Counted from the stretch's first letter, positions 889-32,865 are shown. The stretch: 64,000 nt of DNA from Methylocella sp. (GCA_035687205.1 DASRYK010000074.1:728-64727); one strand, 5' to 3'. A program made the numbers and translations. Notes: a model not told the origin generated them from the sequence alone.

Positions 889-1170
889 ATGTCGTCACCA
901 TGGCCGGGCGCCCTGCTTGGCGCTCTCGCTGGCGCTGTGGCGGGGGCAGCGGGCGCCGCGCTTTTCGGCCCGCAGATCATGCGCCATGCGCGCCCCGCCG
1001 CCAAGGCGGCCCTGAAGGCCGCGCTCATTGCCGCCCACGAAGCAAGGGTTCGCGGAGCTGAATTTGTCGAAGCGGCCGAGGATCTCTATGCCGAGGCAAA
1101 AGCCGAGGTTGCGGCGGAAACGGCGGCTCAGGCCGCAGAGAGCGGAGAAACCTCCCCAGCCGCGCCCTGA
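889..1170 (+). CDS. DUF5132-like small membrane-associated protein
   Basis: AAGGAGG RBS upstream. Gly/Ala-rich hydrophobic N-terminus, then RPAAKAALKAA...EDLYAEAKAEV helix typical of DUF5132 (recognised by eye). Confidence 0.7.
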   Translation: MSSPWPGALLGALAGAVAGAAGAALFGPQIMRHARPAAKAALKAALIAAHEARVRGAEFVEAAEDLYAEAKAEVAAETAAQAAESGETSPAAP

Positions 1171-1197: not shown

Positions 1198-1662
1198 ATG
1201 GATGCGCCCATGAATAATGCGCTGCCCATGGCCGAGACCGCCCATGTGATTCCCGGCCGGACGCGCTTGCGCATAGCCGCGCAGCGCGGCAATGCAGCAT
1301 TTTTCGAGTCGGCCGCAGCCATTCTAAGAGCCATCCCGGGCGTGTCCAAAGCCGAAGGCCGGCCTTTGACCGGCAGCCTCGTGATTCACCACGATGCTCC
1401 CCTCTCCCTCATAGTCGCGGCCGCGCTTGAAAAGCGGCTTTTCGCTGTTGCGGAAAAAAACCCTGCCCCGGCACCCGAATGGCCTGAGCTTCCGCTTGAC
1501 TTGCGCAGCGCGGCCCGAATTGCCTTGGGCCTTTTGGCTTTTTGGCAGTTCATTGAGGGCCGCGTTCTGCCGCCCGCTTTGACCCTCGCGTGGTATGCCG
1601 CACGGCTTGCCCCTTTGCCGGCAGAGACGGATGAAGGGGATGCAGGGAACGGCAGCGATTGA
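1198..1662 (+). CDS. HMA2-like domain protein with C-terminal hydrophobic segment
   Basis: HVIPGRTRLR...GVSKAEGRPLTGSLVIHH matches the HMA2 pattern (PGRxR ... xxTGSxxx). C-terminal LGLLAFWQ...LPPALTLAWYA. Confidence 0.75.
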   Translation: MDAPMNNALPMAETAHVIPGRTRLRIAAQRGNAAFFESAAAILRAIPGVSKAEGRPLTGSLVIHHDAPLSLIVAAALEKRLFAVAEKNPAPAPEWPELPLDLRSAARIALGLLAFWQFIEGRVLPPALTLAWYAARLAPLPAETDEGDAGNGSD

Positions 1663-2708: not shown

Positions 2709-3677
2709 TCATGAATGTCGGCGCTCAAGCGCCGCAAAAAGCGCATCGTCCTTGTCCACGGCCACATTGGGCGTGGTCAGCAATGCCTCCCCGTAAAAGA
2801 TCGAGTTCGCGCCTGCGACCAAGCAGAGAATTTGCGCCTCACGGCTGAGATGAGACCGGCCCGCCGAGAGACGCACCCGTGCGGCAGGAAGCACGATTCG
2901 CGCCGCCGCGATCATCCGCACGAAGTCGAGAGGATCAATGGGCTCTTGCTCCCCGAGCGGCGTTCCCTCGACGGGGACGAGCGCATTGATGGGCACGCTT
3001 TCTGGATGGGGATCGAAGGAAGCAAGCACTTGAAGCATCGAGGCGCGGTCTCTCACGCTCTCTCCCATGCCGATGATTCCGCCGCAGCACATTTGCAGCC
3101 CGGCCTCGCGGACGGCGCGAAGAGTCGCGAGCCGGTCATCGTAGCTTCGCGTCGTGATTATTTTTGCGTAGAATTCGGGGCTCGTGTCGATATTGTGGTT
3201 GTAGGCGGTGAGCCCCGCTTCCTTCAGCCGCTTCGCTTGGGCCGCGTTCAGCATGCCCAGGGTCGCGCAGGCTTCCAAGCCCGTCTCGCGCACGCCACGG
3301 ATCATGTCGAGGACGCGGTCGAAAGCTTCGCCGTCCCGCACGCTCCGCCAAGCCGCGCCCATGCAGAAACGGTCGGCGCCTGCCGCCTTGGCGCGGCAGG
3401 CTGCAGCCAGAACGGCCTCTGTCTCCATCATCTCGATCTTGCCGAGATGCACCTCGCGGTGATGCGCCGACTGGGGGCAGTAGGCGCAGTCTTCCGGGCA
3501 GCCGCCTGTCTTGATGCTGAGAAGAGACGCTTTTTGCACATCGCTCACTTCATGGAACTGCTGGTGAATGCGGTTCGCCTCGGCGATGAGATCGAGCAAA
3601 GGCAGCCAGAAGAGAGCGGCGATTTCGTCTGTGCTCCAGTCGTGCCGGATGAGCGGGCGCGCTTTTGGCTGTTTCAT
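2709..3677 (-). CDS. bioB: Biotin synthase
   Basis: [17 protein letters not shown] radical SAM motif, [28 protein letters not shown]. Confidence 0.97.
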
Positions 3678-3770
3678 GCGGAGCCCTTTCGGCGCAAATC
3701 GGGGAGCGATTCATGGACCGGGCGGGAGCATTTTGCAACCGCAGGGATTCCGGAAAAGCCGTTCCAGAGG

Positions 3771-4991
3771 TCAGCCTTTCGTTAAGGTCCATTGCACGAT
3801 CGGCCGGGCGGGCGACCAGGCTTGAAATGTGCCAAGGGCATCGGCCCGCGAAATTGCGATCCGTGTCAGCTCGCCGCCCTGCGCGTTAAACCGGCGCATG
3901 AGTTCAGCCTCGGTTTCAAGCGTCACCGCATTGACGACGAGCCTACCGCCGGGCGCAAGCGCGGCAAGGGCCGCGTCGATGAGACCCGCATCGCTTGCGC
4001 CGCCGCCAATGAAGACGGCTTGAGGCTGAGGCAGGCCCGAGAGCGCCTCTGGCGCCCGGCCGGTGACAACTTCGATCTGCGGGACGCCGAGCCGGTCTGC
4101 ATTGCGGGCAATGAGACGCGCCCTGTCTTGCCGCATCTCGATCGCTATGGCGCGGTTGGCGGGGCTTCTCAGCAGCCACTCAATCGAGATCGACCCAGAA
4201 CCCGCGCCAATATCCCATAAGAGCTCGCCGCGCCGCGGGGCGAGCGACGAAATGGTGATCGCCCGCACCTCCCGCTTGGTGAGCTGCCCATCCGTCTCGA
4301 ACCAAAAATCCGGAAGCCCGCTCGCCCAAGGCAGCGTGCGTGATTGCGCCCCTGCGGCAATTTCGAGCGCAACGAGATTGAGAGGATCGATACCCGCAAG
4401 CGCAAAAGAGGAAGCCCGCGCCTCTCGCACGCGCTCCCGCGGCCCGCCCATGGCTTCGAGCACCACGATCCGGGAATCCTCAAGCTTCATCTCGCAAAGG
4501 AGCCTTGCAAGGCGCGCAGGCGTCGCCCCATCGCAGGAAAGGCACAGAATTCTTGCCGCAGGCTGGAGAAAGGGAATGATCTGCGCGAGATCGCGGCCGT
4601 GGACCGAGACGAGGCAGCAATCCTGAAGGCTCCACTTGAGCCTGGCCGCCGCGAGGCTGAAAGCGGAAGGGGCCGGGAAGCACTCCATTTCCTCCGGCGC
4701 GACATGAGCGCTGAGCAGGCTTCCCACGCCATAGAAAAAGGGATCGCCCGACGCGAGGATGCAAACCGGAAATCCGCGGTAGGCAAGAATGGCGGGGATG
4801 GCATCGGTCAAAGGCGAAGGCCAGCTCAGCATCTTGGCGGCAAGCGGGCCTGCAAGCTTAAGGTGGCGCTTGCCGCCAACAACAAGCCAGGCTTGCATCA
4901 GCCTCGCCCGCGCGGCAGGAGAAAGCGCGGCGGCGCCCTCCTCGCCAATACCGATGAGCGTCAGCCATTTCCCCGGTGTTTCCCTTGTCAT
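3771..4991 (-). CDS. cobL: Precorrin-6B C5,15-methyltransferase (CbiE/CbiT fusion)
   Basis: LIGIGEEG, LASGDPFFYGVG, GQLTKREVR, LWDIGAGSGSI, GGRLVVNAVTLET. Confidence 0.95.
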   Translation of the reverse strand: MTRETPGKWLTLIGIGEEGAAALSPAARARLMQAWLVVGGKRHLKLAGPLAAKMLSWPSPLTDAIPAILAYRGFPVCILASGDPFFYGVGSLLSAHVAPEEMECFPAPSAFSLAAARLKWSLQDCCLVSVHGRDLAQIIPFLQPAARILCLSCDGATPARLARLLCEMKLEDSRIVVLEAMGGPRERVREARASSFALAGIDPLNLVALEIAAGAQSRTLPWASGLPDFWFETDGQLTKREVRAITISSLAPRRGELLWDIGAGSGSISIEWLLRSPANRAIAIEMRQDRARLIARNADRLGVPQIEVVTGRAPEALSGLPQPQAVFIGGGASDAGLIDAALAALAPGGRLVVNAVTLETEAELMRRFNAQGGELTRIAISRADALGTFQAWSPARPIVQWTLTKG

Positions 4992-5023
4992 CGCGGCAGA
5001 TGCATGTTTTTCGGGCGGAAGCC

Positions 5024-5785
5024 ATGCGGGTTCTGATTCTTGGCGGGACGTCGGAAGCCAGCAAGCTTGCGGAACTCCTTGCCGCAGAGACCGGCATCAT
5101 GGCCGTTTTGTCTTATGCTGGCCGCACCACCGCCTTGCGTGCGCCGCCCATCCCCTATCGCACCGGAGGCTTTGGCGGCATCGAGGGGCTTGAGCATTAT
5201 CTGCGCTCCGGAAGAATCGATGTGCTTGTCGATGCCACGCATCCTTTTGCAGAACAAATTTCGCGCCATGCGCAAGCCGCTGCAGCGAGGGCGGGCATCC
5301 CCCTTGTTGTCCTGTCGCGCCCGCCCTGGGTGCCAGAGGCAGGGGACCGCTGGATCGAAGCTTCCACCATGGCGGAAGCAGCGCGCGCGCTCGGCGAGGC
5401 GCCGAAGCGGGTTTTTTTGACGATCGGGCGGCTGCAGATTTCTGCTTTTGCCGCGGCGCCGCAGCATTATTATCTGATCCGGACCATTGAGCCGCCAGGG
5501 CCGTTGCAGGACCTGCCGCGCGCCAAGGTCATCCAGGGCCGGGGCCCCTTCGAGGCCTCTGCGGAAGCGGAGATCCTGCGCGCTGAATCGATTGATGTGA
5601 TTGTGACCAAGAACAGCGGAGGAGAGGCGGCTTATGCCAAGATTCTCGCCGCCCGGCAGCTCGGCTTGCCGGTCATCATGGTCGCAAGGCCGCAAGAGGC
5701 TGCGGCTGCCGCCTTCCATGATCCCGCGGATGTCTTGGATTTCCTCTGCCGTCATAAAACGGCCTTGGCGCCGCGCGGCGTATAA
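5024..5785 (+). CDS. cobK: Precorrin-6A reductase
   Basis: MRVLILGGTSEA, GGFGGIEGL, VDATHPFAEQIS, VTKNSGG. Start moved to ATG 5024. Confidence 0.95.
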   Translation: MRVLILGGTSEASKLAELLAAETGIMAVLSYAGRTTALRAPPIPYRTGGFGGIEGLEHYLRSGRIDVLVDATHPFAEQISRHAQAAAARAGIPLVVLSRPPWVPEAGDRWIEASTMAEAARALGEAPKRVFLTIGRLQISAFAAAPQHYYLIRTIEPPGPLQDLPRAKVIQGRGPFEASAEAEILRAESIDVIVTKNSGGEAAYAKILAARQLGLPVIMVARPQEAAAAAFHDPADVLDFLCRHKTALAPRGV

Positions 5786-6516
5786 ACAAAAGGCGGGCCG
5801 TTTTCGCGGGGAATGATCCGTGTCTCGCTCGAGCCGATGATGATCAGCGTGCTCATATCGGCCCGGGAGGGATCGGCGGCCCCCAAAACCGTCACAGACA
5901 CGTCTTCGTCCGCTCGGCCGAGCGCGCGGGCAAAAACCACCGGGGTCGCAGCGTCTTTCATGCTGCGCAGCAATGCGAAGGCGTCGCAGATCCGGCCCGG
6001 CCGCGCCTCGGAAGCAGGATTGTAGAGCGCGATCACGAAATCGGCGGCGGATGCAGCCGCAAGCCTCCTTTCGATGACTCCCCATGGCTTGAGATTATCC
6101 GACAAGGAAATTGCGCAGAAATCATGCCCCAAAGGCGCGCCCGCTCTCGCCGCTGCCGCCTGCATTGCCGTAATCCCGGGGCTCACCGCAACGTCAATAC
6201 TGCGCCAGCGCGGCTCGCCAGCGATGGCTTCGAAAACTGCCGCGGCCATGGCAAAGACGCCAGGGTCGCCGCCCGAGACGAGGACAGCGCGGCGGCCGCT
6301 CTCCGCAAGATGCAACGCGTGCCGCGCACGGGCGAGCTCTTGCCCATTGCCGGTCGCGTGGCGCGCTTGGCCTTCTGCGGGAGGAATTCTTTCAAGATAG
6401 GAGGAGTAGCCGACCAGGTCCGTTGCTCCAGCAATGAGCTCGGCGGCCTCGGGCGTCATCCATTGGGCCCCCCCAGGGCCAAGACCAACGATCCGCAGGG
6501 ATCCGCGCGTGCTCAA
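5752..6516 (-). CDS. cobJ: Precorrin-3B C17-methyltransferase
   Basis: VGLGPG, VSGGDPGVFAMA, PGITAMQAAAARAGAPLGHDFCAISLSDNLKPW, LYNPAS, YTPRG. Confidence 0.95.
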   Translation of the reverse strand: MSTRGSLRIVGLGPGGAQWMTPEAAELIAGATDLVGYSSYLERIPPAEGQARHATGNGQELARARHALHLAESGRRAVLVSGGDPGVFAMAAAVFEAIAGEPRWRSIDVAVSPGITAMQAAAARAGAPLGHDFCAISLSDNLKPWGVIERRLAAASAADFVIALYNPASEARPGRICDAFALLRSMKDAATPVVFARALGRADEDVSVTVLGAADPSRADMSTLIIIGSSETRIIPRENGPPFVYTPRGAKAVL

Positions 6517-7256
6517 GGGCGCCTTCCCCGGCCGGGGATGAGGATCGACGAAAAATAAGGGGCATGGCCATCGGTCTTGGCGGCAAGAGGAATAACCGCC
6601 TCTGCTTCTGCCGTGCCATGCTCGACATAGACCGCCTGGGCGAGGCGGCCTGATTCGGCGATCGCATCGCGAATCTTAGCAAGATTGCTGCCTATCTTGA
6701 TGATCACCAAGGCGTCGCTGCGTGCGAGATGGCTGAGGAGCGCTGCCCGTTCAAGCGTGCCAGGCAGGACGCTCAAGACATCATCGCCCCAGGCGATGGG
6801 CGCTTGGGCGGCGCTCCAGCAGCCAGACATCCCCGTAACCCCTGGGATAATCTCCACATCGAAACGGCCTTTAACCCGCAGGAAAATATGGATGAAGGAG
6901 CCGTAGAACAGGGGATCGCCTTCGCAGACAAGAGCGACGTCCCTGCCTTCCGAAAGATGCGCAGTGAGCGCATTTTCAGACTGAGCATAAAAGCGGTCGA
7001 GAGCCTCTGCATAGGCGGGGCCGCTGAAAGGCTCCTCCGTGGTCAAAGGAAAATGCAAGGGCAGGAGGCAGCACGCAGCCCCCGCCCAGCGCTCGAGGAT
7101 CGGATGAGCCCGGCCGCAAGCGCCTTTCTTCGCGAAATAAGCAGCAACGGGGACTGCGGCGAGAAGCTTCGCGGCCTTCACCGTCACGAGGCCGGGATCG
7201 CCTGGGCCGAGGCCAACGCCGAAGAGACGGCCCTTTGATGGCGGTTGGCTGCTCAT
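6513..7256 (-). CDS. cobI: Precorrin-2 C20-methyltransferase
   Basis: GVGLGPGDPGLVTVKA, CEGDPLFYGSF, IPGVTGM, APYFS. Overlaps the cobJ start. Confidence 0.95.
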   Translation of the reverse strand: MSSQPPSKGRLFGVGLGPGDPGLVTVKAAKLLAAVPVAAYFAKKGACGRAHPILERWAGAACCLLPLHFPLTTEEPFSGPAYAEALDRFYAQSENALTAHLSEGRDVALVCEGDPLFYGSFIHIFLRVKGRFDVEIIPGVTGMSGCWSAAQAPIAWGDDVLSVLPGTLERAALLSHLARSDALVIIKIGSNLAKIRDAIAESGRLAQAVYVEHGTAEAEAVIPLAAKTDGHAPYFSSILIPGRGRRP

Positions 7257-7900
7257 AGGGCCTCGCTGGCGATTGCATTTAAGGCCGCTGCGGCGACTGC
7301 GCTTCCGCCCCTGCGCCCGCGGAGTGTTATGAAAGGCACAGGGGAGCCAGCAATCAAAGCGTCTTTCGATTCGGCGGCGCCAACAAAGCCGACGGGCATT
7401 CCCACGATGCAGGCGGGCCTTTCCTCCGTGCCGGGCAGCATCTCCAGCAAATGGAACAATGCGGTTGGCGCATTGCCGATCACGGCAATGGCGCCGTCAA
7501 GCTTGCCGCGCCAGAGCTCAACGGCGGCTGCGCTGCGGGTCGTGCCAAGATCTTGCGCAAGCGTTGCGGCTGCCGGATCGCCGAGAGTGCAAAGGACTTC
7601 GTTTCCGCGCGGCAGCCGCGCGGCGATTATGCCGCTTGCCAGCATTCTCGAATCACAGAGAACCGGCGCCCCTTGCCGGAGAGCTTGGCGCGCCCGCTCG
7701 ACGGCCCCTTTTGAAAAAACGATGTCGGGCGCAATATCCACCATCCCGCAGGCATGGATCATGCGCACGGCGACATGCTCTTCGTCCGGCGCAAAACGCG
7801 AAAGCTCGGCTTCGCTGCGGATCGTTGCAAAGGAGCGGCGGTAGATTTCCGCGCCGGCGCGCAGGTAATTGTAGCGGCGCAAAGCCGGGCTTTGGATCAT
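7253..7900 (-). CDS. cobH: Precorrin-8X methylmutase
   Basis: EIYRRSFATI, RMIHACG, TTRSAAAV, IGNAPTALF, GMPVGFVGAAESK, GRRGGS. Start set at ATG 7900 (ATGA overlap with the cobG stop). Confidence 0.93.
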   Translation of the reverse strand: MIQSPALRRYNYLRAGAEIYRRSFATIRSEAELSRFAPDEEHVAVRMIHACGMVDIAPDIVFSKGAVERARQALRQGAPVLCDSRMLASGIIAARLPRGNEVLCTLGDPAAATLAQDLGTTRSAAAVELWRGKLDGAIAVIGNAPTALFHLLEMLPGTEERPACIVGMPVGFVGAAESKDALIAGSPVPFITLRGRRGGSAVAAAALNAIASEAL

Positions 7901-9210
7901 GACGGAGCCGGCTTGCCCCGCCGTCCAGCGCGGCGCGCGATTTCTTCGAGTTTCTCCCGCACTGCCGCCAGAGTGAGCCCGGCAGCATTGCCAATATCTT
8001 GACCGAGCCTCTTTGGATTTGCTGCCAGATCGTAAAGCCCCGCCCGCGCGACGAGCATCAAAGGAGCATCCGGCTTCCGGCCGCAGGACTTTTCGCAGCC
8101 CGACACATGGAGCGGGATCCCGATGCTCCAGAGCTGCTCCACGGCTGGCTGCAAAGCCAACGCATCGGCATGGGTGTTGGTCGTGCCTGATTCGCAAGCG
8201 CCTGAGCCGCCGCAGGCCGAGATCGCGGCTCGCGCGTCGCTGCAATCGGTGATGAAGCCCTGGGCGCAAAGCTCTTCCTCAAGGGATTTGGCATGGCCTT
8301 CCTGCACATGAGGAAAGAGCAGCGCGCGCCAGGGCGTGAGCCTAATCTCGCCGGAAGCGAACTTCGCGGCAGCGCAGGCGGCAGCCTCAAGCATGCGGGT
8401 ATCGAGACGCCCGAGCGTGGCTCCGGCCCCAAAGCAGGCGGTGCCATTGACACGGAAAAGCCCAATGGGACAGGGCTCTTTGGCGAGACCTGCTGCGCGC
8501 GGCTTATGAAGGTGAAGCCTCGCCCGCGCCGCAACGGCCCCCGCCCCGAGCCGCTCGACAAGGCTGCGCATTCTTCGCGGCGGGTCTTTCAGTTGCGATG
8601 CAAGGCTCAGAAATGCCCAAGCAAGCCGCCGCGCCACAAACGGGATCTGGCGCGGCGGGCAATGTCCCAGGAAACTGGCATCATCCGCGCAGCCGCCAAT
8701 GCCTATGGCGAACGACTGGCTCTCCTCATCCCAGTCGAAACGCACATCGGCGCTGATGCGCGCAAGCGAAAGCGCGCTTCCGCCGTCAATAAGAAAGCAG
8801 AACTTCGCTGGCAAGGCGTGAAGGCCGCTTGAGCCTGAGAGCAGGGCCTCGAGATCCTTGGCCGCAGCTAGCGCATCTTCCCGTCCGTCGAGACCGGCTA
8901 ACGGGTCAACAAGGACGTTGCGGACGGACTCTGCTGCGGCGGAGGGATCCATCATCCCAAGGCGGGCGATCACTTCCGTAAGGCGGGGAAGAGCGTCTCT
9001 GTGAAGGCCGCGGATTTGCAGATTGGCGCGGCTTGTGAGGTCGAAGAGCCCGTTGCCGAAGGTGCGCCCGGCCGTGGCGATCTCGCGCAGAGCGGAGGAG
9101 GAAATGCTGCTTCCGCTGATCTTCAGCCGAACAAGCAGCCCGTCTTTCGCGGGCATGGGCCGGAGAACACCAGGGCACCAGCCTTTAAGGGCATAGGCTT
9201 TTCCGGTCAT
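7897..9210 (-). CDS. cobG: Precorrin-3B synthase
   Basis: KGWCPGVLRPMPAKDGLLVR, DLTSRANLQIRG, LPAKF, LTPWR, CGGSGACESG, HVSGCEKSCG. Start ATG 9210 overlaps the cobN stop. Confidence 0.92.
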   Translation of the reverse strand: MTGKAYALKGWCPGVLRPMPAKDGLLVRLKISGSSISSSALREIATAGRTFGNGLFDLTSRANLQIRGLHRDALPRLTEVIARLGMMDPSAAAESVRNVLVDPLAGLDGREDALAAAKDLEALLSGSSGLHALPAKFCFLIDGGSALSLARISADVRFDWDEESQSFAIGIGGCADDASFLGHCPPRQIPFVARRLAWAFLSLASQLKDPPRRMRSLVERLGAGAVAARARLHLHKPRAAGLAKEPCPIGLFRVNGTACFGAGATLGRLDTRMLEAAACAAAKFASGEIRLTPWRALLFPHVQEGHAKSLEEELCAQGFITDCSDARAAISACGGSGACESGTTNTHADALALQPAVEQLWSIGIPLHVSGCEKSCGRKPDAPLMLVARAGLYDLAANPKRLGQDIGNAAGLTLAAVREKLEEIARRAGRRGKPAPS

Positions 9211-12200
9211 GCCTGCTCCCCCTGGGTGAAGGCGGCAAGAACGGCAAGCGCCGAGTTGCTCCGGGTTTGCCAAAAGCCGCGGGCACGGGCGTTCTCAAAG
9301 CATTTCGCAAGAGCGCGGGCAGCCCTCGGATTGGCGCTCATAAGAAATTCCCTCACTTCAGGTTTCCCAAGCGTCGCCCCGAACAAAAGATCGAAATGCT
9401 GGCTCCCCACCGCTTCGCTCAGCACCGCGAAAGCATAAAGATTGTCGGCCGCTGCCGCAATTTCCGCCGCGCCGCGATGGCCGTGCCGCATCTGGCCTGC
9501 GATCCAGCGCGGATTGGCGGCCCGGCCGCGCACCACTCTTGCGATTTCCTCCTTCAAAGTGCGCACCTTGACCGAAGCCGGCCTCGCGGTATTGGCATGA
9601 TAAAGCGTCACTTCGTTTCCGAGCAGACGCGCGGCCGCCGCAAAACCGCCCTCATGATCGGCGGTTTCGCTCGAATCGAGCACATCTCCTTCGTCCTGGT
9701 CCTGGCTGTGCACAAAGGCATCGGCAGTGGCAACCCGCCCAGCAAAATTTCTTGACGGAATGCCTTCGGCCAAAGCGCCGCAATAGGCATGGGACGCGGA
9801 AGCAAGGTAACGCGCTGCCAACGCCTCAGCAGGCAGCATCGGGTTCGCATCGATTGCCTCTGCCAGACCGATGCCGTAGACACCGGGCGCTGTGCCGAAA
9901 ATCCGCAAGGGCGCTTCCCCGGAGCACCGCTGCGCCGCGGCAAGCGGGTTGTGCTCATCGTCTTCGTCCAATGCGCCAACGGCTCGCACGGCTTGGCCGA
10001 AAAGCGTGACCTGCGCCGGAAAGACATCGCGGAAAAGGCCGGAGATCCGCAAAGTCACATCGACCCTCGGGCGCCCGAGGCTCGCGCAGGGGATGATCTC
10101 GAAGCCCGTCACGCGGGCGGAGGCATTATCCCAAAGCGGCCTGACGCCAAGAAGGGCAAGCGCTTGGGCAAGGTCTTCGCCCCCTGTGCGCATGGCGGCG
10201 CTTGCCCAAAGATCCATGACAATCCGCTTTGGCCACTCGCCATGATCTTGAAGATAGCGGGTCAGGACTTCTTGCGCAGCAGCGCGCCCCGTCTCCCAGG
10301 CGGTTCGAGAAGGCACGGCGCGCGGATCGGTTCCATAGAGATTGCGCCCTGTCGGCAGCACATCGATCCTGCCGCGGGACGGCGCTCCGCCAGGCCCCGG
10401 CGGGACAAAGCCGCCATCAAGCGCCTCGAGAAGCGCGGCGCGCTCGGCAGGCCCGCACGACCCCATGAGGCGGCCGATTCTCTGAACCGCTTCCTCGCCG
10501 CCATCCGCCGCCCCGGCTGCGCCCAGAATGGCAGCGGCCGCAGCCGCGAGACCGCCTTCCGGCGGCCGCCCGAAAATATGCAAACCGTCGGCGATCCGCA
10601 TTTCCTTCACATCGCAGAGCCAGCCGTCGAGTTGGCGCAGCGCGTCGGCAGGAGCCGCATCCTCATTGAGGCCGCATTCGTGAAAGAGCCCCGTCTCGCG
10701 GGCGCGCGTAAGGATGGCCTTTGCCAGACGCTTGGCGCGCTTGGGATCGAGCGCCTCGGCCGCGGCATATTCATCAAACAGGGTTTCAAGCTCGAGCGCT
10801 GCGCCATGATGGCCGGCATGGATGAGGGGCGGAGTCAGATGGCTGATGGTTAGGGCGCAGATGCGCCGTTTTGCCTGCGCCGCCTCGCCCGGGTTATTGA
10901 CGATGAAGGGATAGATGACGGGCAGCGGGCCGAGAACCGCCTCTGGAGCGCAGCTTCTGTCCAGCGCCACCGCCTTGCCGGGCAGCCATTCGAGCGTGCC
11001 ATGGGTGCCGCAATGGATGATGGCATGGACCTTTTCGCATTCGCGCAGCCAAGCGTAGAAAGCGATATAAGCATGGCAGGGCGCAAGCGCGGCATCGTGA
11101 TAATCCGCCTTGCGGGTTTCGCGATTGCCGCGATCGGGCTGGAGCGCAATGAGCAAATTTCCGGCGCGGATCACTGGAAAAACAAATGCGCCGCCCTCCG
11201 CGGCATCCCGGGGATCACCCCACTGCGCGCGCACTTGCCCGGCAAATGCTGCGGGCATGTCATCGAATGCGCGGAGATAACTCGAAAGAGGAAAGAGCGC
11301 TGCTCCGGCGCCCTCTTCGAGGCGGCGCATCATACTTTCCGCGCGCGGCAGCGGCGTAACGCTGTAGCCGGCTTCTTGAAGGATCCTGGCGATCTCCGCC
11401 GCGCTGCCTGCGGTGTCGAGGCCAACGGCATAGCCGCCGCGGCCTTGCCTTCCCGGATAGTCTGGCAGGATACAGGCGATCTTGCGCCGGGCGCGCGGGG
11501 TCCTGCGCAGGATCACCCATGAAGCGGCCAGGCTCGCCACAAATTCCGTGCGTGACGGCAGCGGAGCATGAACCCGCGGGGCGAATTCGAGATCGGCACG
11601 GCGGCTTGCTTCCTCTTTGAAAGCAAAGGCGCGGGTTATCAGCCGCCCGTCGAGCTCCGGGAGGACGGCATTCATTGCAAGATCCGCAGCGCCCAGGCCG
11701 CGGGGATTATTCCGCCACTGCGCCTCTTCAGCGCTTGAGAGGATTGCCTGCAGCACCGGCACGCGGGCCTCATCGAGAACGCTAGATTCATCTTCGAGGC
11801 GCGCTGAAAAGCCTGTTGTGTTGACGATGATGTCAGGCCTGCAGCGGGAAAGCTCCTCGCGAAGCCAAGCAATGGCCTCCGTCTCCTTGAGACTGGCCAC
11901 AAAGACCGCCGTCACGGAAAGACCGCGCGCGGCAAGCACATCCGCCAGAGCCTCAATCGCCGCCGTGTCGCCCGCTAATAAGTAGGAGCGGTAGAATACA
12001 ATGAGAGCTTTGCCCAAGCAGGGCTCTGCCCTGCGGCAGCCGCCCTCGTAGCGCCCAGCGGAGGGAGCCGCTGAGGCAGGCGGCAGCGCCCGCCAAACCG
12101 GAGCTTCGCGCTCAAAGCTTTCGGCAAAAGCCAGCACCGCACCCACATGTTCGACCCCGCCCATCTGGAAAGCAGCGTGAATGCGCCGGAGATCAGCAAT

Positions 12201-12593
12201 GGGCACCGTCGAAGCCGCATCGAGCCTCTCGTCTTCCGTCGAGTCGCCCGGCACGGCGGCAAAGGCAAACCCTTTGCTGCGCGCCGCGCGCGCGAGCTCC
12301 TCGATACCATAGCGCCAATAATCGAGCCCGCCCAAGAGGCGGACCAGAACGAAGCGCGCATGGCCCACGGTTTTCTCAAGATAAAGATCAACCGAATAAG
12401 GGTGCTTGAGCCAGGCAAGATTGGCTAGCCTGAGGCTCATGGCGCCGGGGGGGCGCTGCCGCGCGGTTTCCGCCACAAGGCTCAGATCGCTGTCCGAATA
12501 GGAAAGAAACAAAATGCCAGCGGGAGTCTGGCCAAGGTCGGCGGCCGCTTCGGCCTCGTCCAGAGATCGCGAATCGATCCGCAAGAGATGCAT
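9207..12593 (-). CDS. cobN: Cobaltochelatase subunit CobN
   Basis: MHLL N-terminus, HCGTHGTLEWLPGK, YPFIVNNPGEAAQAKRR, LPTGRN, RVDVTLRISGLFRDVFP. Confidence 0.96.
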   Translation of the reverse strand: MHLLRIDSRSLDEAEAAADLGQTPAGILFLSYSDSDLSLVAETARQRPPGAMSLRLANLAWLKHPYSVDLYLEKTVGHARFVLVRLLGGLDYWRYGIEELARAARSKGFAFAAVPGDSTEDERLDAASTVPIADLRRIHAAFQMGGVEHVGAVLAFAESFEREAPVWRALPPASAAPSAGRYEGGCRRAEPCLGKALIVFYRSYLLAGDTAAIEALADVLAARGLSVTAVFVASLKETEAIAWLREELSRCRPDIIVNTTGFSARLEDESSVLDEARVPVLQAILSSAEEAQWRNNPRGLGAADLAMNAVLPELDGRLITRAFAFKEEASRRADLEFAPRVHAPLPSRTEFVASLAASWVILRRTPRARRKIACILPDYPGRQGRGGYAVGLDTAGSAAEIARILQEAGYSVTPLPRAESMMRRLEEGAGAALFPLSSYLRAFDDMPAAFAGQVRAQWGDPRDAAEGGAFVFPVIRAGNLLIALQPDRGNRETRKADYHDAALAPCHAYIAFYAWLRECEKVHAIIHCGTHGTLEWLPGKAVALDRSCAPEAVLGPLPVIYPFIVNNPGEAAQAKRRICALTISHLTPPLIHAGHHGAALELETLFDEYAAAEALDPKRAKRLAKAILTRARETGLFHECGLNEDAAPADALRQLDGWLCDVKEMRIADGLHIFGRPPEGGLAAAAAAILGAAGAADGGEEAVQRIGRLMGSCGPAERAALLEALDGGFVPPGPGGAPSRGRIDVLPTGRNLYGTDPRAVPSRTAWETGRAAAQEVLTRYLQDHGEWPKRIVMDLWASAAMRTGGEDLAQALALLGVRPLWDNASARVTGFEIIPCASLGRPRVDVTLRISGLFRDVFPAQVTLFGQAVRAVGALDEDDEHNPLAAAQRCSGEAPLRIFGTAPGVYGIGLAEAIDANPMLPAEALAARYLASASHAYCGALAEGIPSRNFAGRVATADAFVHSQDQDEGDVLDSSETADHEGGFAAAARLLGNEVTLYHANTARPASVKVRTLKEEIARVVRGRAANPRWIAGQMRHGHRGAAEIAAAADNLYAFAVLSEAVGSQHFDLLFGATLGKPEVREFLMSANPRAARALAKCFENARARGFWQTRSNSALAVLAAFTQGEQA

Positions 12594-12596
12594 GGC

Positions 12597-13640
12597 CTAA
12601 AGCTGCCCGCTCGCTAGCTCATTCGCAACCGACACTTTGTCAAATCCCTTCTGCCCGATGATCACGAGCTGCCCCTGCCGCGGCTCGCCTTCCTCCCAGG
12701 GGCGGCCGAACGACTTCTGAAAACGCTTTCCGACGCCCTGGACGAGAAGACGCGCAGGCTTTCCTTGCACCTCGACAAATCCCTTGATCCTGAGAACGCC
12801 AAAGCGCTCCGCAATCCCTGCCAGCTTGCACAACAAGGCATCGCCATCGCCGACGGCGCCAGTCTCAACGACGGCGCTTTCGAAATCATCGTGATCATGC
12901 TCCCCCGCTGCATCGTGATGCGATGGCCTTGCGGCGAGATCGTCCTCAGCCGCCGCGCCGAGTCCGAGCAGCACCGCCGGATTGAGCCTGCCCTCGCGCG
13001 CTGGGACGATCTTGACCGCGCGGGGAACGCGCTCCGCAAGATCCGCAGCGATGCTCTGCAGCGTTTCCTGACTGATGAGGTCGGCCTTGTTGAGGACGAT
13101 GAGATCGGCGCAAAGAAGCTGATCTTCAAAGACTTCCTCGAGAGGATTGTCATGCGCGATGGAGGGGTCTGCCTCCCGCTGCTGGGCAAGCTTTGCCGGA
13201 TCGGCCGCAAAGCGGCCATCTGCCACCGCCTCGCCATCAACAACCGCGATCACGCCATCAACGGTGAGCCGGGCACGGATGAGGGGCCAGTCAAATGCCT
13301 TGACCAAGGGCTTCGGCAAAGCAAGGCCTGAAGTTTCGATGACGATATGACTGGGGAGCGGCTGAAGTGAGAGAAGCTGCTCAATCGCAGGAAGAAAATC
13401 ATCGGCAACCGTGCAGCAGAGGCAGCCATTGGCAAGCTCGATGATCCTGTCCGCCGGGCAGGCGGGATCGCCGCAGCCGTTCACGATCTGAGCATCGACT
13501 CCGATATCGCCGAACTCGTTGATGAGAAGCGCAAGGCGGCGGCCCTGGCTGCTTTCCAGAAGATGCCGGATGAGCGTTGTTTTACCCGCGCCGAGAAATC
13601 CGGTGATGATTGTGACGGGGATTTTGGAAAGGGGCATCAT
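12597..13640 (-). CDS. cobW: Cobalamin biosynthesis GTPase CobW
   Basis: KIPVTIITGFLGAGKTT, NEFGD, ELANGCLCC, IETSGLALPKPLV, NKAD, QGVG. Confidence 0.95.
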   Translation of the reverse strand: MMPLSKIPVTIITGFLGAGKTTLIRHLLESSQGRRLALLINEFGDIGVDAQIVNGCGDPACPADRIIELANGCLCCTVADDFLPAIEQLLSLQPLPSHIVIETSGLALPKPLVKAFDWPLIRARLTVDGVIAVVDGEAVADGRFAADPAKLAQQREADPSIAHDNPLEEVFEDQLLCADLIVLNKADLISQETLQSIAADLAERVPRAVKIVPAREGRLNPAVLLGLGAAAEDDLAARPSHHDAAGEHDHDDFESAVVETGAVGDGDALLCKLAGIAERFGVLRIKGFVEVQGKPARLLVQGVGKRFQKSFGRPWEEGEPRQGQLVIIGQKGFDKVSVANELASGQL

Positions 13641-27513: not shown

Positions 27514-30500
27514 ATGATTGATCCGGAAAATCCTGGCGCAGTGCCAAACAAAGCTCCGCAGCAGCCCAATGGCAGGCTAAGACCAGGCCGAGGCGCCAAA
27601 ATCGTCCATGACGCAGTAAAGGGCCGCATCCGCTTCCGGCATAGGGAGCTTACCGGGCGGCCCGGTCTCGCATTGGCTGTCATGGAGTCGCTTCGCCGCT
27701 GCCATGACGTTAAAAGCGTGCGGGCCAGCGCGCTCACAGGCTCCGTGCTTGTCGAATTCGGATCTGCCGTGACGGCTTCGCAGCTCGCGCAAGCCATCGA
27801 CGCAATCGTGAACGGCCACAGCGCTTCGCTTGCGTTGCAGCTTTCTCTCGAGCGCTCCTTGTCCGCTGCTGGAGCTTCCGGGAGCCAGGCCGCCGGTCAG
27901 GCATGGCATGCTTTATCAGCCGCGGAGGCATCCAAACAGCTCGGCGCATGCCTCGAAAGCGGCTTAGCGCCTGAAGAAGCGCAGCGCCGGATCGCGCTTT
28001 ATGGCCGCAACGAGATGCAGAGACTCGAGGCACGCCCGCTGCTTGCGATCTTTACCGAGCAAACGACAAGCCTGCCGATGATCTTGCTTGCTGTTTCTGC
28101 GGGGCTCTCGATTGCCACAGGCGCTTTCGGCGACGCTGTTGTCATCGTTGCCGCCATGCTGCTTAATTCGATGATTGCCACAGCGACGGAGCGCCAGGCT
28201 GAGCGCACCATCGTAGGCCTCTCGAACACGGCGTTGCAACCGGTGCCCGTTTTGCGGGGCGGCCGCCGCCGTCTTATCGATCCGGCCGATCTCTCGCCCG
28301 GAGATCTCGTGCTGCTTGAGCGCGGAGCGCTTGTCCCCGCAGATGCGAGGCTTGTTAAAGCTGCCGACCTCACCGTGAACGAATCCGCTTTGACCGGTGA
28401 AGCGCTTCCTGTCCAGAAGGATGCTGGACTTGTTCTTCCAGCCGATACGCCTCTGCCTGACCGCAAGAATATAGTTTTCCGCGGAACTGCCGTGACCGGA
28501 GGGTCCGCTGCGGCACTTGTCTTTGCCACCGGCAGAGCGACTGAGATCGGAAAGCTTCAGCAGCTCTTAGGCATGGTGCGCCCGCCCGAGACGCCTATGC
28601 AACGCCAGCTCGATGAGGTCGAGCGCGAGCTTGTCGCTGTCAACAGCGTCATTTGCGCCTGTGTTTTTGGCATTGGACTCTTGCACGGCAACGGTCTAAT
28701 CGCGACCATCCGCAGCGCGATCGCTCTTGCAGTCGCTGCCCTTCCGGAGGGGTTGCCCGCGGTGGCGACAACGGCCCTTGCAATCGGTGTCCAGCAGATG
28801 CGCAGACGCCATGTGCTCGTGCGCAAGATCGGCGCTCTCGAAACGCTTGGCTCCATTCAGGTGATTGGCCTCGACAAGACCGGCACGCTCACCGAGAACC
28901 AAATGGCAGCCGTGGCGGTCCATGCCGGAAGCCGTTATCTCGTCCTTCGCGAAAACCGCTTCGTTTGCGAGGGCAATGATCCCGGCGAAATGATCGCTGG
29001 CATCGTGCGGCGCTTATTCGAGGTGACCGCTCTTTGCAGTGAAGCTGCCATCCGCCTGCTGCCCGAAGGCCCTGAGATCGAGGGCACCCCCACAGAAAGC
29101 GCGCTGGTCTCGGCGGCTCTGGCGCTTGGCATCGACGTTGCTGCCCTCCGCGCCTCTGCTCCTATCGTCAAAATGGCGGTGCGCGCGGAAGGGCGTAAAC
29201 GGATGAGCACGCTCCATGAGACCGCTGGCGGCGGGCGCAAGCTCTGTGTCAAGGGCGATCCCGTGGAGGTGCTGTCGCTCTGCACGCATCTGCTCATGCC
29301 AGACGGTCTTGCCGCGCTCGACGAGGCAAGCCGCGCGGCAATCCTCAAGGCCAATGATCGGATGGCTGGCCAAGCCTTGCGCGTGCTCGGCGTGGCTGCG
29401 GCTGAGGGAGAGAGGGATCCTGCAAACGAGAGCGGATTAGTTTGGCTTGGTCTTGTGGGCCTTGCTAACCCAATCCGGCCAAGCGTCGTCCCTGCGCTAG
29501 CAAGGCTCCAGCGCGCTGGCATCCGCACCGTGATGATCACTGGCGATCAGAGCGCGACAGCCTTTGCGATTGCAAAGGATCTGCGCCTCAACGCAGATGG
29601 CGAGCTCGTCGTCCTTGAAGCGGGCCGCATTGCGGGTCTCAAGCCCGAGGTCCTGGCCGCTCTCGTCGCCCGGCCGCATGTTTTCGCCCGGGTGAGCCCT
29701 GTCGAAAAGCTCAACATCGTGAAAGCGCTTCAGGCGCAAGGCCTGATTGTCGCCATGACGGGGGACGGGATCAATGATGGCCCGGCCCTAAGGGCGGCCA
29801 ATGTCGGCATTGCGATGGGCGGCGAGGGCACAGATGTTGCGCGGGAGGCGGCCGACATCGTGCTTGCCCGCGATGATCTCGAGGGCATTATTGAAGCCAT
29901 CCGTCTCGGCCGCTCGACCTATGCCAATATGCGCAAGGTCCTGCGCTACCTTACATCAACGAATACGGCCGAGACATTGATTATGCTCGCGGCCGCTGTT
30001 GTTAACCGCGGCGAGCCTCTCACGCCGATGCAGCTTTTGTGGGCGAACATCGTTGGCGAGGTTGCCCCTGCGCTGGCGCTCGCTCTTGAGCCGCCAGAGC
30101 CGCGCGTTCTCGACCAGCCGCCGCACGACCCCCGCGCGCCTATTCTGACAAGCGCCGATTTCCACAAAATCGTCCGTGAAGGCGTTGTCATCGGAACAAT
30201 GGCTCTTGGCGGATATTTTCTTTCGCTGGGCGCAGGGGAAAGAGGGGCAAAGAGCGTTGCCTTTCACAGCCTTGCCCTTTCACATTTTCTTCAAGCCATC
30301 AGCTGCCGGTCGGAGACCCGCGGCTTTACGGCTGAGTTCTGCCGGCCCTCGAGCACAAAGCTTTATGGCGGGCTTGCAGTTTCGGCTCTCCTCCAAGCCA
30401 TGGCGCAGTTTGTGCCGCCCCTTCGCCGGGTCCTAAATCTTGCTCCTCTCGCTTCCAAGGAGCTTGCTGCCATCGCTGGCAGCGCTCTTGGCGGCGCGGC

Positions 30501-30576
30501 CGTCAATGATATTTTGAGCGCTATCTTTCGCGATTCCAAAACATTGCGAAGCCAAGGCCTTGCAGGAAACCCATGA
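27514..30576 (+). CDS. P2A-type cation-transporting P-type ATPase with N-terminal HMA2-like domain
   Basis: KGRIRFR...ASALTGSVLVEF N-domain, WHALS...GL..EAQRR...GRN, ESALTGEA, ALPEGLP, DKTGTLT, TGD, GDGINDGPAL. Confidence 0.92.
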   Translation: MIDPENPGAVPNKAPQQPNGRLRPGRGAKIVHDAVKGRIRFRHRELTGRPGLALAVMESLRRCHDVKSVRASALTGSVLVEFGSAVTASQLAQAIDAIVNGHSASLALQLSLERSLSAAGASGSQAAGQAWHALSAAEASKQLGACLESGLAPEEAQRRIALYGRNEMQRLEARPLLAIFTEQTTSLPMILLAVSAGLSIATGAFGDAVVIVAAMLLNSMIATATERQAERTIVGLSNTALQPVPVLRGGRRRLIDPADLSPGDLVLLERGALVPADARLVKAADLTVNESALTGEALPVQKDAGLVLPADTPLPDRKNIVFRGTAVTGGSAAALVFATGRATEIGKLQQLLGMVRPPETPMQRQLDEVERELVAVNSVICACVFGIGLLHGNGLIATIRSAIALAVAALPEGLPAVATTALAIGVQQMRRRHVLVRKIGALETLGSIQVIGLDKTGTLTENQMAAVAVHAGSRYLVLRENRFVCEGNDPGEMIAGIVRRLFEVTALCSEAAIRLLPEGPEIEGTPTESALVSAALALGIDVAALRASAPIVKMAVRAEGRKRMSTLHETAGGGRKLCVKGDPVEVLSLCTHLLMPDGLAALDEASRAAILKANDRMAGQALRVLGVAAAEGERDPANESGLVWLGLVGLANPIRPSVVPALARLQRAGIRTVMITGDQSATAFAIAKDLRLNADGELVVLEAGRIAGLKPEVLAALVARPHVFARVSPVEKLNIVKALQAQGLIVAMTGDGINDGPALRAANVGIAMGGEGTDVAREAADIVLARDDLEGIIEAIRLGRSTYANMRKVLRYLTSTNTAETLIMLAAAVVNRGEPLTPMQLLWANIVGEVAPALALALEPPEPRVLDQPPHDPRAPILTSADFHKIVREGVVIGTMALGGYFLSLGAGERGAKSVAFHSLALSHFLQAISCRSETRGFTAEFCRPSSTKLYGGLAVSALLQAMAQFVPPLRRVLNLAPLASKELAAIAGSALGGAAVNDILSAIFRDSKTLRSQGLAGNP

Positions 30577-31754
30577 CACCGGATATGGTCTTCACCTCCG
30601 AGTCGGCCACACCCGGTCATCCGGACAAGCTCTGCGACCAGATCAGCGATGCTGCCATTGATGCTTTTCTGCGCCAGGATCCCGCGGCCCGCGCTGTAGT
30701 TGAATGCGCGGTTGCGACGGGCGTCGTCTTCCTCGCTGCCCGTTTTGCCGCTGAGGCGGCTGTGGATCTGCCTTCGCTGGCGCGCAAGGTGATCGCGGAT
30801 GCCGGCTATCTCAACGGCCATTTCGACGCGCGCAGCTGTGCCATTCTGACGAGCTTTTCCGAGCTTCCGATGAACATGCGTGAGCCGCCGCTTGTCTCCC
30901 TCGATGAGGAGGCGGCCGAACGCTGCGTCGCGCATGACCAGGCCAATGTGTTCGGCTTTGCCTGCCGGGAAACGCCGGAGCTTATGCCGCTGCCGATCAG
31001 CCTCGCTCACCGCCTGGCACGCGCCATCGACCGTGCCCGGCAGTCTTACGCCCCCTGGCTCTCGCCGGACGGCAAGACTCAGGTCTCTGTCGAATACCGG
31101 AACTGGCGCCCGCAGCGCATCAGCGCAATCTCCGTGACGGCAGCTTTCAACGCGGGCACGCCGCCGGGAAAGGCAGACGAATGCCTGCGCGCTCTCGCAC
31201 TGGATTGTTTTGCAGGCGGGGATTTGAAGCCTGACTCGAAGACAGAAATCCACATCAATGCGGCGGGTGTCTACGAAAGCGAGGTTGGCGGCCCCACGCG
31301 GCATGCAGGACTGACCGGCCGGAAGAATGGAATCGACACCTATGGCGAGTTCGCCCGGCAGAGCGGCGCGGCTCTCTCAGGAAAGGATCCCTCGCGGATC
31401 GACCGGATTGGCGCCTATGCTGCCCGCCATGCCGCAAAGAATGTCGTTGCCGCAGGGCTTGCTGAGCGCTGCGAGGTGCACCTCTCCTATGCGATCGGGC
31501 GCGCACGCCCCTTGAGTCTCGCAGTCGAAACATTCGGCAGCGGCAAAGTGCCGGATCGCGAAATTGCAGAGCGCCTCGGGCGGAGCCTCGATTTCCGCCC
31601 TGCCGCCATCTCGCACCGCTTCGGGCTGCGCACGGCGCCCGGGCGCTTGGGCGCTGAAGGCTTTTATCAGCCGCTCGCCGTGTTTGGCCATTTCGGGCGC
31701 ACCGACCGGAACTTGCCCTGGGAGGCAGCCGATGCCGTGGAAGCTCTCTCCTGA
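30573..31754 (+). CDS. Methionine adenosyltransferase-like protein (atypical MetK paralog)
   Basis: FTSES..GHPDK, DGKTQV, GLTGRK..DTYG, SGKD, AAKNVVAAGLA, GHFGR are present, but the Met-binding residues are substituted. ATGA overlap with the ATPase. Confidence 0.88.
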   Translation: MTPDMVFTSESATPGHPDKLCDQISDAAIDAFLRQDPAARAVVECAVATGVVFLAARFAAEAAVDLPSLARKVIADAGYLNGHFDARSCAILTSFSELPMNMREPPLVSLDEEAAERCVAHDQANVFGFACRETPELMPLPISLAHRLARAIDRARQSYAPWLSPDGKTQVSVEYRNWRPQRISAISVTAAFNAGTPPGKADECLRALALDCFAGGDLKPDSKTEIHINAAGVYESEVGGPTRHAGLTGRKNGIDTYGEFARQSGAALSGKDPSRIDRIGAYAARHAAKNVVAAGLAERCEVHLSYAIGRARPLSLAVETFGSGKVPDREIAERLGRSLDFRPAAISHRFGLRTAPGRLGAEGFYQPLAVFGHFGRTDRNLPWEAADAVEALS

Positions 31755-31827
31755 ACTTCCGGGATTGCGATTACACCCATTGAGATCCCCTCGCCAGGAA
31801 GCGCAGCTCAGCACCGAGCGAGATGCG

Positions 31828-32865
31828 GTGACGCCGTCTCATCAGGATGGGACCCCGGCCGAGGAGCCTCCGCGGTTCCGGCAAAGGCCGCCTTGGCTTG
31901 GCGGCGATCTCCAAACCCTGCGCAATGCCCTGCTTCCGGCTCCCCAGGAGCTGCCCGGCGGCGAGCGCCTGCTGCTGCCGCTTGCCGATGGCGAGAAGCT
32001 TGCCGCGCGGCTCGACATTCCGGCAGAGCGCAAGGCAGGACCGCTCCTTGTGCTGGTGCATGGCCTTGCTGGCTCGGAGGCAAGCGCCAATGTCGTGGCG
32101 AGCACCCGGTATTTCTTGCGTCAAGGCTGGGCCGTCCTGCGCCTCAACCTGCGGGGGTCGCTTCCCTCGCTTCCTTCGGCTCCTGGGCATTACCACGCCG
32201 GTAAGACAGAGGACCTCGCGGACGCTCTGCGCGGGCTGCCGGATGCTCTGACGCGGCATGAGATCGTTCTCATCGGTTATTCACTCGGCGGCAATCTCGT
32301 TCTGAAATTTATAGGCGAAGGCGGGCACGGCCTGCCCATTCTGGCTGTTGTTGCAGTCTCGGCCCCGATCGACCTTGCCGCAACCTGCGCCTGCATGATG
32401 ACCCCGCGCAATTTTCTCTATCACCGCTATATGCTTCAGGCGATGAAGCGCGAGGCGCTGGCAGAAGGCGCCAGCGTGAGCAGCGCCGAGCGGGCGGCCA
32501 TCGCTGCCGCGCGGAATGTCTTTGAATTCGATGACCTCTTTATCGCGCCGCGCTTTGGCTACAATGGCGCCCTGGACTATTACGATAGCAATGCTGCCAA
32601 ACATTTTCTCGCCGGCATCGACCGGCCAACGCTCATTCTTCATGCGCTTGACGATCCCTGGATCCCTGGCACCTGTTACACCGCGATCGATTGGCCCCGG
32701 ATGCCCATGATCGAGGCAGTGCTCACGCCTCGCGGCGGGCATCTCGGCTTCCATGGCCAAGGCAGCCGCATCCCCTGGCACGACCGGATGACTGCATGGT
32801 GGCTTGCCAGAACGTTCCTTTCCGCCAAGAGTGGCGGGCGCCCAAACCTGTCTTTGTCAGGCTAA
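31828..32865 (+). CDS. YheT-family alpha/beta hydrolase
   Basis: WLGGDLQT, HGLAGS, GYSLGG nucleophile elbow, DDPWI, GGHLGF. Start GTG 31828 is approximate. Confidence 0.88.
   Translation: MTPSHQDGTPAEEPPRFRQRPPWLGGDLQTLRNALLPAPQELPGGERLLLPLADGEKLAARLDIPAERKAGPLLVLVHGLAGSEASANVVASTRYFLRQGWAVLRLNLRGSLPSLPSAPGHYHAGKTEDLADALRGLPDALTRHEIVLIGYSLGGNLVLKFIGEGGHGLPILAVVAVSAPIDLAATCACMMTPRNFLYHRYMLQAMKREALAEGASVSSAERAAIAAARNVFEFDDLFIAPRFGYNGALDYYDSNAAKHFLAGIDRPTLILHALDDPWIPGTCYTAIDWPRMPMIEAVLTPRGGHLGFHGQGSRIPWHDRMTAWWLARTFLSAKSGGRPNLSLSG

Follow-up and report, generated by a model that had tools for sequence, protein, structure and literature searches.

The described systems closest to the locus considered here are S-adenosylmethionine (SAM) synthetase (MetK), the P2A calcium pumps, the neighbourhood of the calcyanin gene ccyA in Microcystis and the fez clusters of ferrosomes. 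The locus itself, a P-type ATPase gene whose end overlaps the start of a gene for a MetK-like protein, lies in a 64,000-nucleotide stretch of Methylocella sp. DNA (GCA_035687205.1, DASRYK010000074.1:728-64727), called the window below. SAM synthetase binds methionine by Q98, D238 and E55, and adenosine by D163, R229, F230 and S99 (PMC1282579). The ccyA neighbourhood contains CoBaHMA-DUF454, DUF5132 and cax genes (10.1101/2024.07.07.602159). The CoBaHMA domain of Benzerara et al., a cysteine-free HMA-like fold with a conserved histidine and basic residues (PMC8890360), corresponds to Pfam HMA_2. The fez clusters encode an arginine-rich pump (RxRxR), an arginine-rich membrane protein and a GxxxG protein (10.1101/2020.01.10.902569).

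The MetK-like protein shares with SAM synthetase (TIGR01034; structures 1FUG and 1RG9 from E. coli, 7R3B from L. plantarum) the three-domain methionine adenosyltransferase (MAT) fold, the GHPDK, PDGK, GLTGRK and SGKD..D motifs, and all ligands of Mg2+, K+ and triphosphate. However, it differs at E55, Q98 and D238, which are replaced by R/K, L/M and H, at K269, which is replaced by R, and in the altered GAGDQG and GGGAF loops. The gating-loop region is longer and acidic. Moreover, the gene is an extra copy beside canonical metK wherever this was checked in other genomes, and it always stands behind a P-type ATPase.

The ATPase has the domain order of the P2A Ca2+ pumps (LMCA1, SPCA1/PMR1, SERCA), their DKTGT, TGE and GDGxND motifs, the glutamate of PEGLP in M4, the Asn and Glu of M5, and the Asn and carboxylate of M6. 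It differs from them by an N-terminal CoBaHMA domain, by scores below every NCBIfam Ca-ATPase equivalog cut-off, and by its obligate MetK-like partner. At the M8 position, where SERCA has Glu and LMCA1 has Arg, the family has Gln and the window protein His.

With the Microcystis ccyA neighbourhood the locus shares the cysteine-free HMA-like domain with conserved His and basic residues (PMC8890360; 10.1101/2024.07.07.602159), as well as a CoBaHMA protein with a C-terminal helical hairpin and DUF5132 proteins beside a calcium transporter. On the other hand, calcyanin and cax are absent here, and the transporter is a P-type ATPase that itself bears the CoBaHMA domain. A text search of the CoBaHMA and ccyA preprints, a set that did not include PMC8890360, found no mention of a MetK-like gene.

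The parallel with the fez clusters, drawn from the published description of their motifs, consists of GRIRFRH in the ATPase, GRTRLRI in a small protein, and a transmembrane helix with G-x3-G. However, the pump is P2A-like rather than of the P1B-6 type of FezB. It lacks D[Y/F]SCA and HNxxT, and all profile and PDB matches assign it to the P2 type. Iron genes are absent here, and the fez clusters have no MetK-like member.

P-type ATPase accessory clusters and MAT-fold paralogs are known kinds, and their pairing appears to be new. No description of such a pair was found in the open literature, a search that did not cover the main CoBaHMA paper (Gaschignard et al. 2024). We estimate at about 0.75 the probability that a translationally coupled pump and a MAT paralog other than a SAM synthetase form the core of an accessory system distributed across phyla, with two small partners and with an unrelated hydrolase as neighbour in this window. 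The linkage of cations and phosphate by this system is our proposal.

Linkage of the pump and MetK-like genes

The source assembly (2.99 Mb in 165 contigs, 95% complete) contains the window as C74:728-64727; relatives of the window are Methylocapsa, Methylocystis and other Beijerinckiaceae. The ATPase gene was assigned to 27514..30576 (+; 1020 aa) by Pfam, NCBIfam, a PDB sequence search and motifs. Its start is uncertain and may be TTG at 27460, ATG at 27514, or GTG at about 27541, the last being the choice of the gene call in L178, an independent contig with about 90% nucleotide identity to the window. The MetK-like gene, at 30573..31754 (+; 393 aa), was assigned by profiles, residue alignment, an AlphaFold2 model and Foldseek. 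A preliminary description of this DNA had claimed that the two genes overlap as ATGA at 30573..30576 (+), and the open reading frames (ORFs) confirm this: TGA closes ORF 27514-30576, ATG opens ORF 30573-31754, and AGGA precedes this ATG by about 6 nt. A sigma-70-like promoter site was not found, nor were riboswitches or other Rfam elements, the SAM riboswitch included, at E up to 0.1 around these two genes and the hydrolase gene that follows them. The group is flanked by an Lhr helicase gene upstream and by a convergent Ahr-type aldehyde reductase gene downstream.

With the MetK-like protein as query, a scan of one genome for each GTDB species gave 80 loci, in which ATPases were searched for with tblastn. 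An orthologous ATPase (38-62% identity) is encoded directly upstream, on the same strand, of all 54 MetK genes that have the H.GLTGRK signature and at least 1.5 kb of upstream sequence, versus none of the 15 canonical metK genes with D.GLTGRK. The reverse scan found the MetK-like gene directly downstream of 44 out of 47 CoBaHMA-bearing ATPases. Among 20 ATPases without detectable CoBaHMA, several of them truncated, it follows in 4-5 cases. The CoBaHMA-ATPases of L146 (Rokubacteria), L150 (Solibacteraceae) and L153 (Methylomirabilota) are exceptions, lacking the MetK-like gene despite available sequence; in L150 a small CoBaHMA gene occupies its position.

The overlapping junction recurs as well. 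In other loci, 65 of the 105 junctions overlap, and 43 of these 105 have the same 4-nt ATGA (-4). Such an overlap is common in operons and thus proves little by itself; its conservation across phyla is what carries weight. Pairwise distances of the ATPases and the MetK-like proteins are correlated (r 0.84, Mantel p 0.001). In the tree, a long stem leads to a single clade of the 62 atypical MetKs, from which the 16 canonical sequences are excluded; its local support is weak (0.62).

The pair spans at least nine bacterial phyla. It occurs in Alpha-, Beta- and Gammaproteobacteria, Desulfobacterota, Myxococcota, Acidobacteriota, Chloroflexota, Planctomycetota, Cyanobacteriota, Nitrospirota and Binatia. 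Cultured carriers include Methylocapsa aurea, Methylocystis and Methylosinus species, Methyloceanibacter, Methylococcus capsulatus Texas, Nitrosospira sp. Nsp14 and Chlorogloeopsis fritschii PCC 6912. The last (G043, L100) has two atypical MetKs (404 and 386 bits), a canonical metK and at least one pump/MetK-like pair; this strain is also named for a Ca/H exchanger in the calcyanin paper (PMC8890360). At the same time the distribution is sporadic, the MetK-like gene being present in 2 of 25 genomes of the genus and 2 of 301 of the order. This pattern is that of an accessory module and suggests lateral spread. In the congener M. aurea the pair, at 60% and 73% identity, lies in another genomic context and without a hydrolase.

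The neighbourhood survey that the preliminary description had called for thus gave near-perfect linkage in both directions. The adjacency is not restricted to one strain, and ATPases homologous to the one in the window are regularly linked to an atypical MetK. Together with the junctions, the co-evolution and the family-wide remodelling of the MetK pocket considered below, this strongly supports the earlier suggestion of a dedicated unit of a cation pump and a repurposed MetK-family protein. Comparative genomics identifies the pair as a real, widely conserved module, and its two products almost certainly work together, in a job that would concern cations or phosphate.

Gene fusions were also considered as Rosetta-stone evidence and set aside as too weak. 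The candidate in L024 is a frameshifted read-through, and that in L160 is partial. In L041:7-2613 (+), from a metagenome-assembled genome (MAG) of Desulfobacterales, the ATPase and the MetK-like gene share one frame, where an indel relative to L040 shifts the TGA out of frame. The fusion may be natural, or it may be an error of short-read assembly.

The pump and the MAT-fold protein

The ATPase contains the Pfam domains Cation_ATPase_N, E1-E2_ATPase, Hydrolase (the HAD/P domain), Cation_ATPase and Cation_ATPase_C, and the core motifs DKTGT, TGEA and GDGIND. Its closest solved structures in a PDB sequence search are Listeria LMCA1, SPCA1 and SERCA (434-368 bits). The top NCBIfam models are those of PMR1-type and SERCA-type Ca pumps, both missed at the equivalog cut-off (TIGR01522, 525.9 versus 798.3 bits; TIGR01116, 464.8 versus 703.4 bits). 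The N-terminal HMA_2 match covers residues 31-91, with 28.1 bits in hmmscan and 31.1 bits in a six-frame genome scan (cut-off 30), and places the CoBaHMA domain at about residues 28-95. Its signature is formed by H32, R38, R40 and R42, and there is no CxxC in residues 1-130; in the family the histidine is present in 76 of 85 members and the arginine in 81 of 85. On these matches the protein is a P2A-like, calcium-type P-type ATPase in which a CoBaHMA domain with a basic RxRxR strand precedes the pump core. The transported ion is presumably a divalent cation.

The ion site was compared in 85 non-redundant family members, with its residues in SERCA numbering (E309, N768, E771, N796, T799, D800, E908). 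The equivalents of E309, N768, E771 and N796 are invariant, the T799 position is S or T, D800 is D in 84 of 85 members, and the E908 position is Q. The window ATPase has E412, N817, E820, N845, G848, E849 and H924 at these positions. Its site is therefore atypical, with Gly-Glu for the family Ser/Thr-Asp in M6 and His for Gln in M8 (residues 847-849 and 924 of the ATPase, encoded at 30052-30060 and 30283-30285, +). The same three residues, G848, E849 and H924, occur in L178, and 16 of 120 alphaproteobacterial homologues have a [G/A]E variant, their M8 residue being H, R, A, G or Q. Thus the variant is a real trait of a subclade and not an error, and the idea that the site is unique to the window was rejected. 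It may alter ion preference or stoichiometry. The dN/dS ratio (nonsynonymous to synonymous substitution rates) of the ATPase gene relative to L178 is 0.18.

The MetK-like protein passes TIGR01034 marginally, with 322.3 bits at a cut-off of 309.4, where the canonical MetKs of 23 congeners score 454-476 bits. The N, M and C domains of S-AdoMet_synt are all recognised by Pfam (E-values 4e-29, 1e-26 and 3e-50). The AlphaFold2 model (pLDDT, its predicted confidence score, 88.9) matches MAT structures in Foldseek with template modelling (TM) scores of 0.84-0.94 at 36-43% identity. A third, far more divergent MetK-family gene (522 aa, TIGR01034 170 bits) was observed in another genome of the genus, G011, at L017:5537-7105 (-). 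It encodes an N-terminal extension of about 148 aa and has an AAA_5-like ORF nearby, and no P-type ATPase gene adjoins it.

The pocket was analysed in an alignment of 62 family members and 16 canonical MetKs, with E. coli numbering taken from NC_000913. The family retains H14, D16, K17, E42, D163, K165, R244, K245, K265 and D271. The ligands of triphosphate, Mg2+ and K+ among these (H14, D16, E42, K165, R244, K245, K265, D271) are kept in 50-62 of the 62 members and in the window protein; H14 itself is kept in 61 and D163 in all 62. The methionine ligands, in contrast, are altered: E55 is R or K in 56 of 62 sequences, Q98 is mostly L or M, and D238 is H in every one. K269 is likewise R in 62 of 62. 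The window protein has R at E55, L at Q98, H244 at D238 and R275 at K269. Of the adenosine contacts, S99 is P in 38 of 62 members, the F230 position is F, L, V, Y or I, and the R229 position is variable, being unconserved in the canonical set too. The GAGDQG loop has become V/A-x-[NDE]-Q-[VA], and the GGGAF loop is changed as well. Further changes diagnostic of the family are T43C, G258S, F262L, V270I and A274G. A dN/dS of 0.06 relative to L178 indicates strong purifying selection on the gene.

As judged from this alignment, the active site keeps its triphosphate and metal half, while its methionine half is rebuilt as a conserved basic and hydrophobic pocket and its adenosine half is loosened. 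We infer that the protein does not function as a SAM synthetase. With R/K in place of E55 and H in place of D238 the charge at these positions is reversed, and an anionic ligand that reaches out of the triphosphate site would fit there.

Small membrane proteins and other neighbours

Flanking ORFs of the module were clustered in 106 loci. In 84 of them the pair is adjoined by two small partner genes, which lie upstream in the same orientation or downstream and convergent. One of these encodes a CoBaHMA protein whose C-terminal part forms a hydrophobic hairpin; the product of the other is of DUF5132 type and has a glycine-zipper transmembrane helix. Both are present in the window, 26 kb upstream of the pair. 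By this comparison they are the third and fourth conserved members of the module, so the association with DUF5132 and HMA_2 genes anticipated in the preliminary description holds, at a distance in this genome.

The DUF5132-like gene, at 889..1170 (+), was assigned from its sequence, its top Pfam match and its clustering with the partner genes. The product has an N-terminal glycine-zipper transmembrane helix with G-x3-G repeats, followed by a helix rich in A, E and K. The top match is DUF5132 (PF17195) over residues 35-77, with 16.1 bits under a cut-off of 25, whereas orthologues from Desulfobacterota exceed the cut-off (37.7 and 30.4 bits). We therefore call the protein DUF5132-like: it is itself sub-threshold, though its orthologues pass. 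The small CoBaHMA gene, at 1198..1662 (+), encodes a protein with an HMA_2 (PF19991) match of 37.4 bits (cut-off 30), the basic motif HVIPGRTRLRI and the C-terminal hydrophobic hairpin. Identity with the M. aurea partner, whose gene adjoins the pair directly, is 54%. This protein and the ATPase give the only two HMA_2 matches in the genome.

The two halves of the module are separated by biotin, cobalamin, sensor-kinase, TonB-receptor and Lhr genes. Biotin synthase and an aerobic-type cobalamin block (a cobL-like CbiE/CbiT fusion, cobI, cobG, cobN, cobW) occupy 2709-13640 (-); these genes appear to be unrelated to the module.

Other neighbours recur in various loci and are not universal. A 230-aa repeat protein is encoded in 28 loci and a Zn-ribbon protein in 15. 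A CPC-type P1B ATPase with its own N-terminal CoBaHMA/HMA_2 domain (41.9 bits) adjoins the module in 12 loci, which come from several phyla: one is L032:1501-3759 (-), the others being L020, L021, L028, L039, L087, L092, L106, L111, L120, L127 and L142. A Na/Ca exchanger is a neighbour in 9 loci, and PstB or PstS in 12 loci of several classes. The recurrence of these last two kinds hints at a theme of calcium and phosphate.

Possible functions

Our best guess from the sequence comparisons is a Ca-type pump with a MAT-fold enzyme that would handle triphosphate or polyphosphate or be repurposed in some other way. Firstly, the pump would transport Ca2+ or a similar divalent cation. Secondly, on the cytoplasmic side, its MAT-fold partner would bind or hydrolyse ATP, triphosphate or polyphosphate. 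Cation transport would thereby be coupled to turnover of phosphate or polyphosphate; for instance, cations freed on polyphosphate mobilisation could be exported or sequestered, or a store of Ca-phosphate or Ca-carbonate could be loaded. Finally, the small CoBaHMA and DUF5132-like membrane proteins would serve to organise the pump or to regulate it. Taken as a whole this mechanism is tentative, its chances probably well short of even.

Several observations weigh against it. The unusual ion site of the window pump (G848, E849, H924) makes calcium less certain for this lineage. Because His14 and Asp163 are retained in the MetK-like protein, transfer of the adenosyl group to a new acceptor fits as well as a role confined to phosphate. 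The protein still scores above the NCBIfam metK cut-off (322 versus 309.4 bits), and no second MAT gene was detected in this 95%-complete assembly by TIGR01034, by the archaeal family PF01941, by tblastn with E. coli MetK, or by blastn and tblastx with the metK locus of a congener, so that a residual MAT role in this genome stays formally conceivable. The module is split over 26 kb here, with no calcium or phosphate genes adjoining. A Pho-box-like site was not found near the module genes (CTGTCAT-N4-CTGTCAT with up to 3 mismatches, a crude test with 4 matches in 64 kb and 2.6 expected), and thus phosphate control is unsupported for this window.

A different possibility is that the MetK-like protein is a new adenosyltransferase, which would cleave the C5'-O5' bond of ATP in favour of a non-methionine, probably anionic, acceptor, the product being used or exported by the pump system. 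Retention of His14 (61/62), of Asp163 (62/62), of all triphosphate and metal ligands and of a hydrophobic residue at Phe230 would fit such a reaction; so would the strong purifying selection and the fact that the new pocket residues (R, H and R) are conserved in their turn, as they should be if the substrate is a defined one. However, the adenosine contacts are eroded (S99, F230, GAGDQG), the recurrent neighbours include no biosynthetic or SAM-using genes, and P2-type pumps are not known to transport organic substrates. We regard a new adenosyltransferase as possible and rather unlikely.

About equally doubtful is a MetK-like protein that would act as a non-catalytic, sensing subunit on the pump, perhaps bound through the basic CoBaHMA domain, and gate it by the level of ATP, inorganic triphosphate (PPPi) or polyphosphate. 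The obligate gene order and overlapping junctions, which favour equimolar synthesis, the co-evolution of both proteins and the possible in-frame fusion in L041 are in agreement with a subunit. In two preprints, both citing Gaschignard 2024, CoBaHMA is proposed to be regulatory and to bind anionic partners (10.1101/2024.07.07.602159; 10.64898/2025.12.07.689555). On the other hand, conservation of all catalytic metal and phosphate ligands is unusual for a pure scaffold, and the lone fusion depends on one indel in a MAG assembled from short reads.

The proposed coupling of cation transport to phosphate also has a bolder form, to which we give somewhat less credence than to a sensing subunit. The four genes would be a widespread, so far unrecognised cation-phosphate device, one form of which would be a membrane-associated, ferrosome-like store of calcium or another divalent metal with phosphate, polyphosphate or carbonate; the MAT fold would serve as a processor of tri- or polyphosphate or as an adenosyltransferase with a new acceptor. 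An organelle is disfavoured by the fact that bacterial P2A pumps of established location are exporters of the plasma membrane.

The preliminary description had added a third gene to the unit, for a YheT/PRK10985-like alpha/beta hydrolase (137.9 bits, cut-off 267). Profiles place it at 31732..32865 (+), so the reported strand and downstream position stand. The reported gap of about 70 bp holds only if the gene starts at the alternative GTG 31829; with the in-frame ATG 31732, to which the start annotated in L178 corresponds, it would share 23 nt with the MetK-like gene. A functional module of all three genes could be argued from their common strand, the close or overlapping junction, the lack of a terminator-like hairpin anywhere between them, and the same gene order in L178. 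However, about 120 other module loci, that of M. aurea included, gave no homologue of the hydrolase, and the L178 locus is the only other one to have it; the gene is also the least constrained of the three (dN/dS 0.25 relative to L178). We therefore rejected the hydrolase as a module member, and treat it as a lineage-specific neighbour, a functional unit of the three genes being very improbable.

Least probable of all is that a genuine, divergent SAM synthetase isozyme, perhaps the only MetK of this genome, stands in a pump operon by chance: the score above the TIGR01034 cut-off and the lack of any other bacterial or archaeal MAT gene in the assembly speak for it, but other residues stand at E55, Q98 and D238 throughout the family, 23 of 25 congeners have the canonical gene only, or none of the atypical type, M. 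aurea keeps a canonical metK, and so do 10 of 10 other carrier genomes (476-629 bits, beside 325-404 bits for the atypical copy). The 1.2-1.5 kb flanks on each side of metK in the congener locus L015 also have no counterpart in this assembly, and thus the missing canonical gene probably reflects a gap in the assembly; if not, the genome's sole MAT-fold gene would be the atypical one.

Since the family has lost the methionine site, its annotation as methionine adenosyltransferase is almost certainly wrong for hundreds of genomes. The obligate partnership of a P-type ATPase and a MAT-fold protein would mean either a new activity of a highly conserved enzyme fold or a new accessory subunit of a pump. 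As CoBaHMA and DUF5132 genes adjoin the marker gene of intracellular calcium carbonate in cyanobacteria, and as the locus parallels ferrosome clusters, the system may bear on storage or detoxification of divalent cations and phosphate. The module occurs in cultured strains and is hence accessible to experiment.

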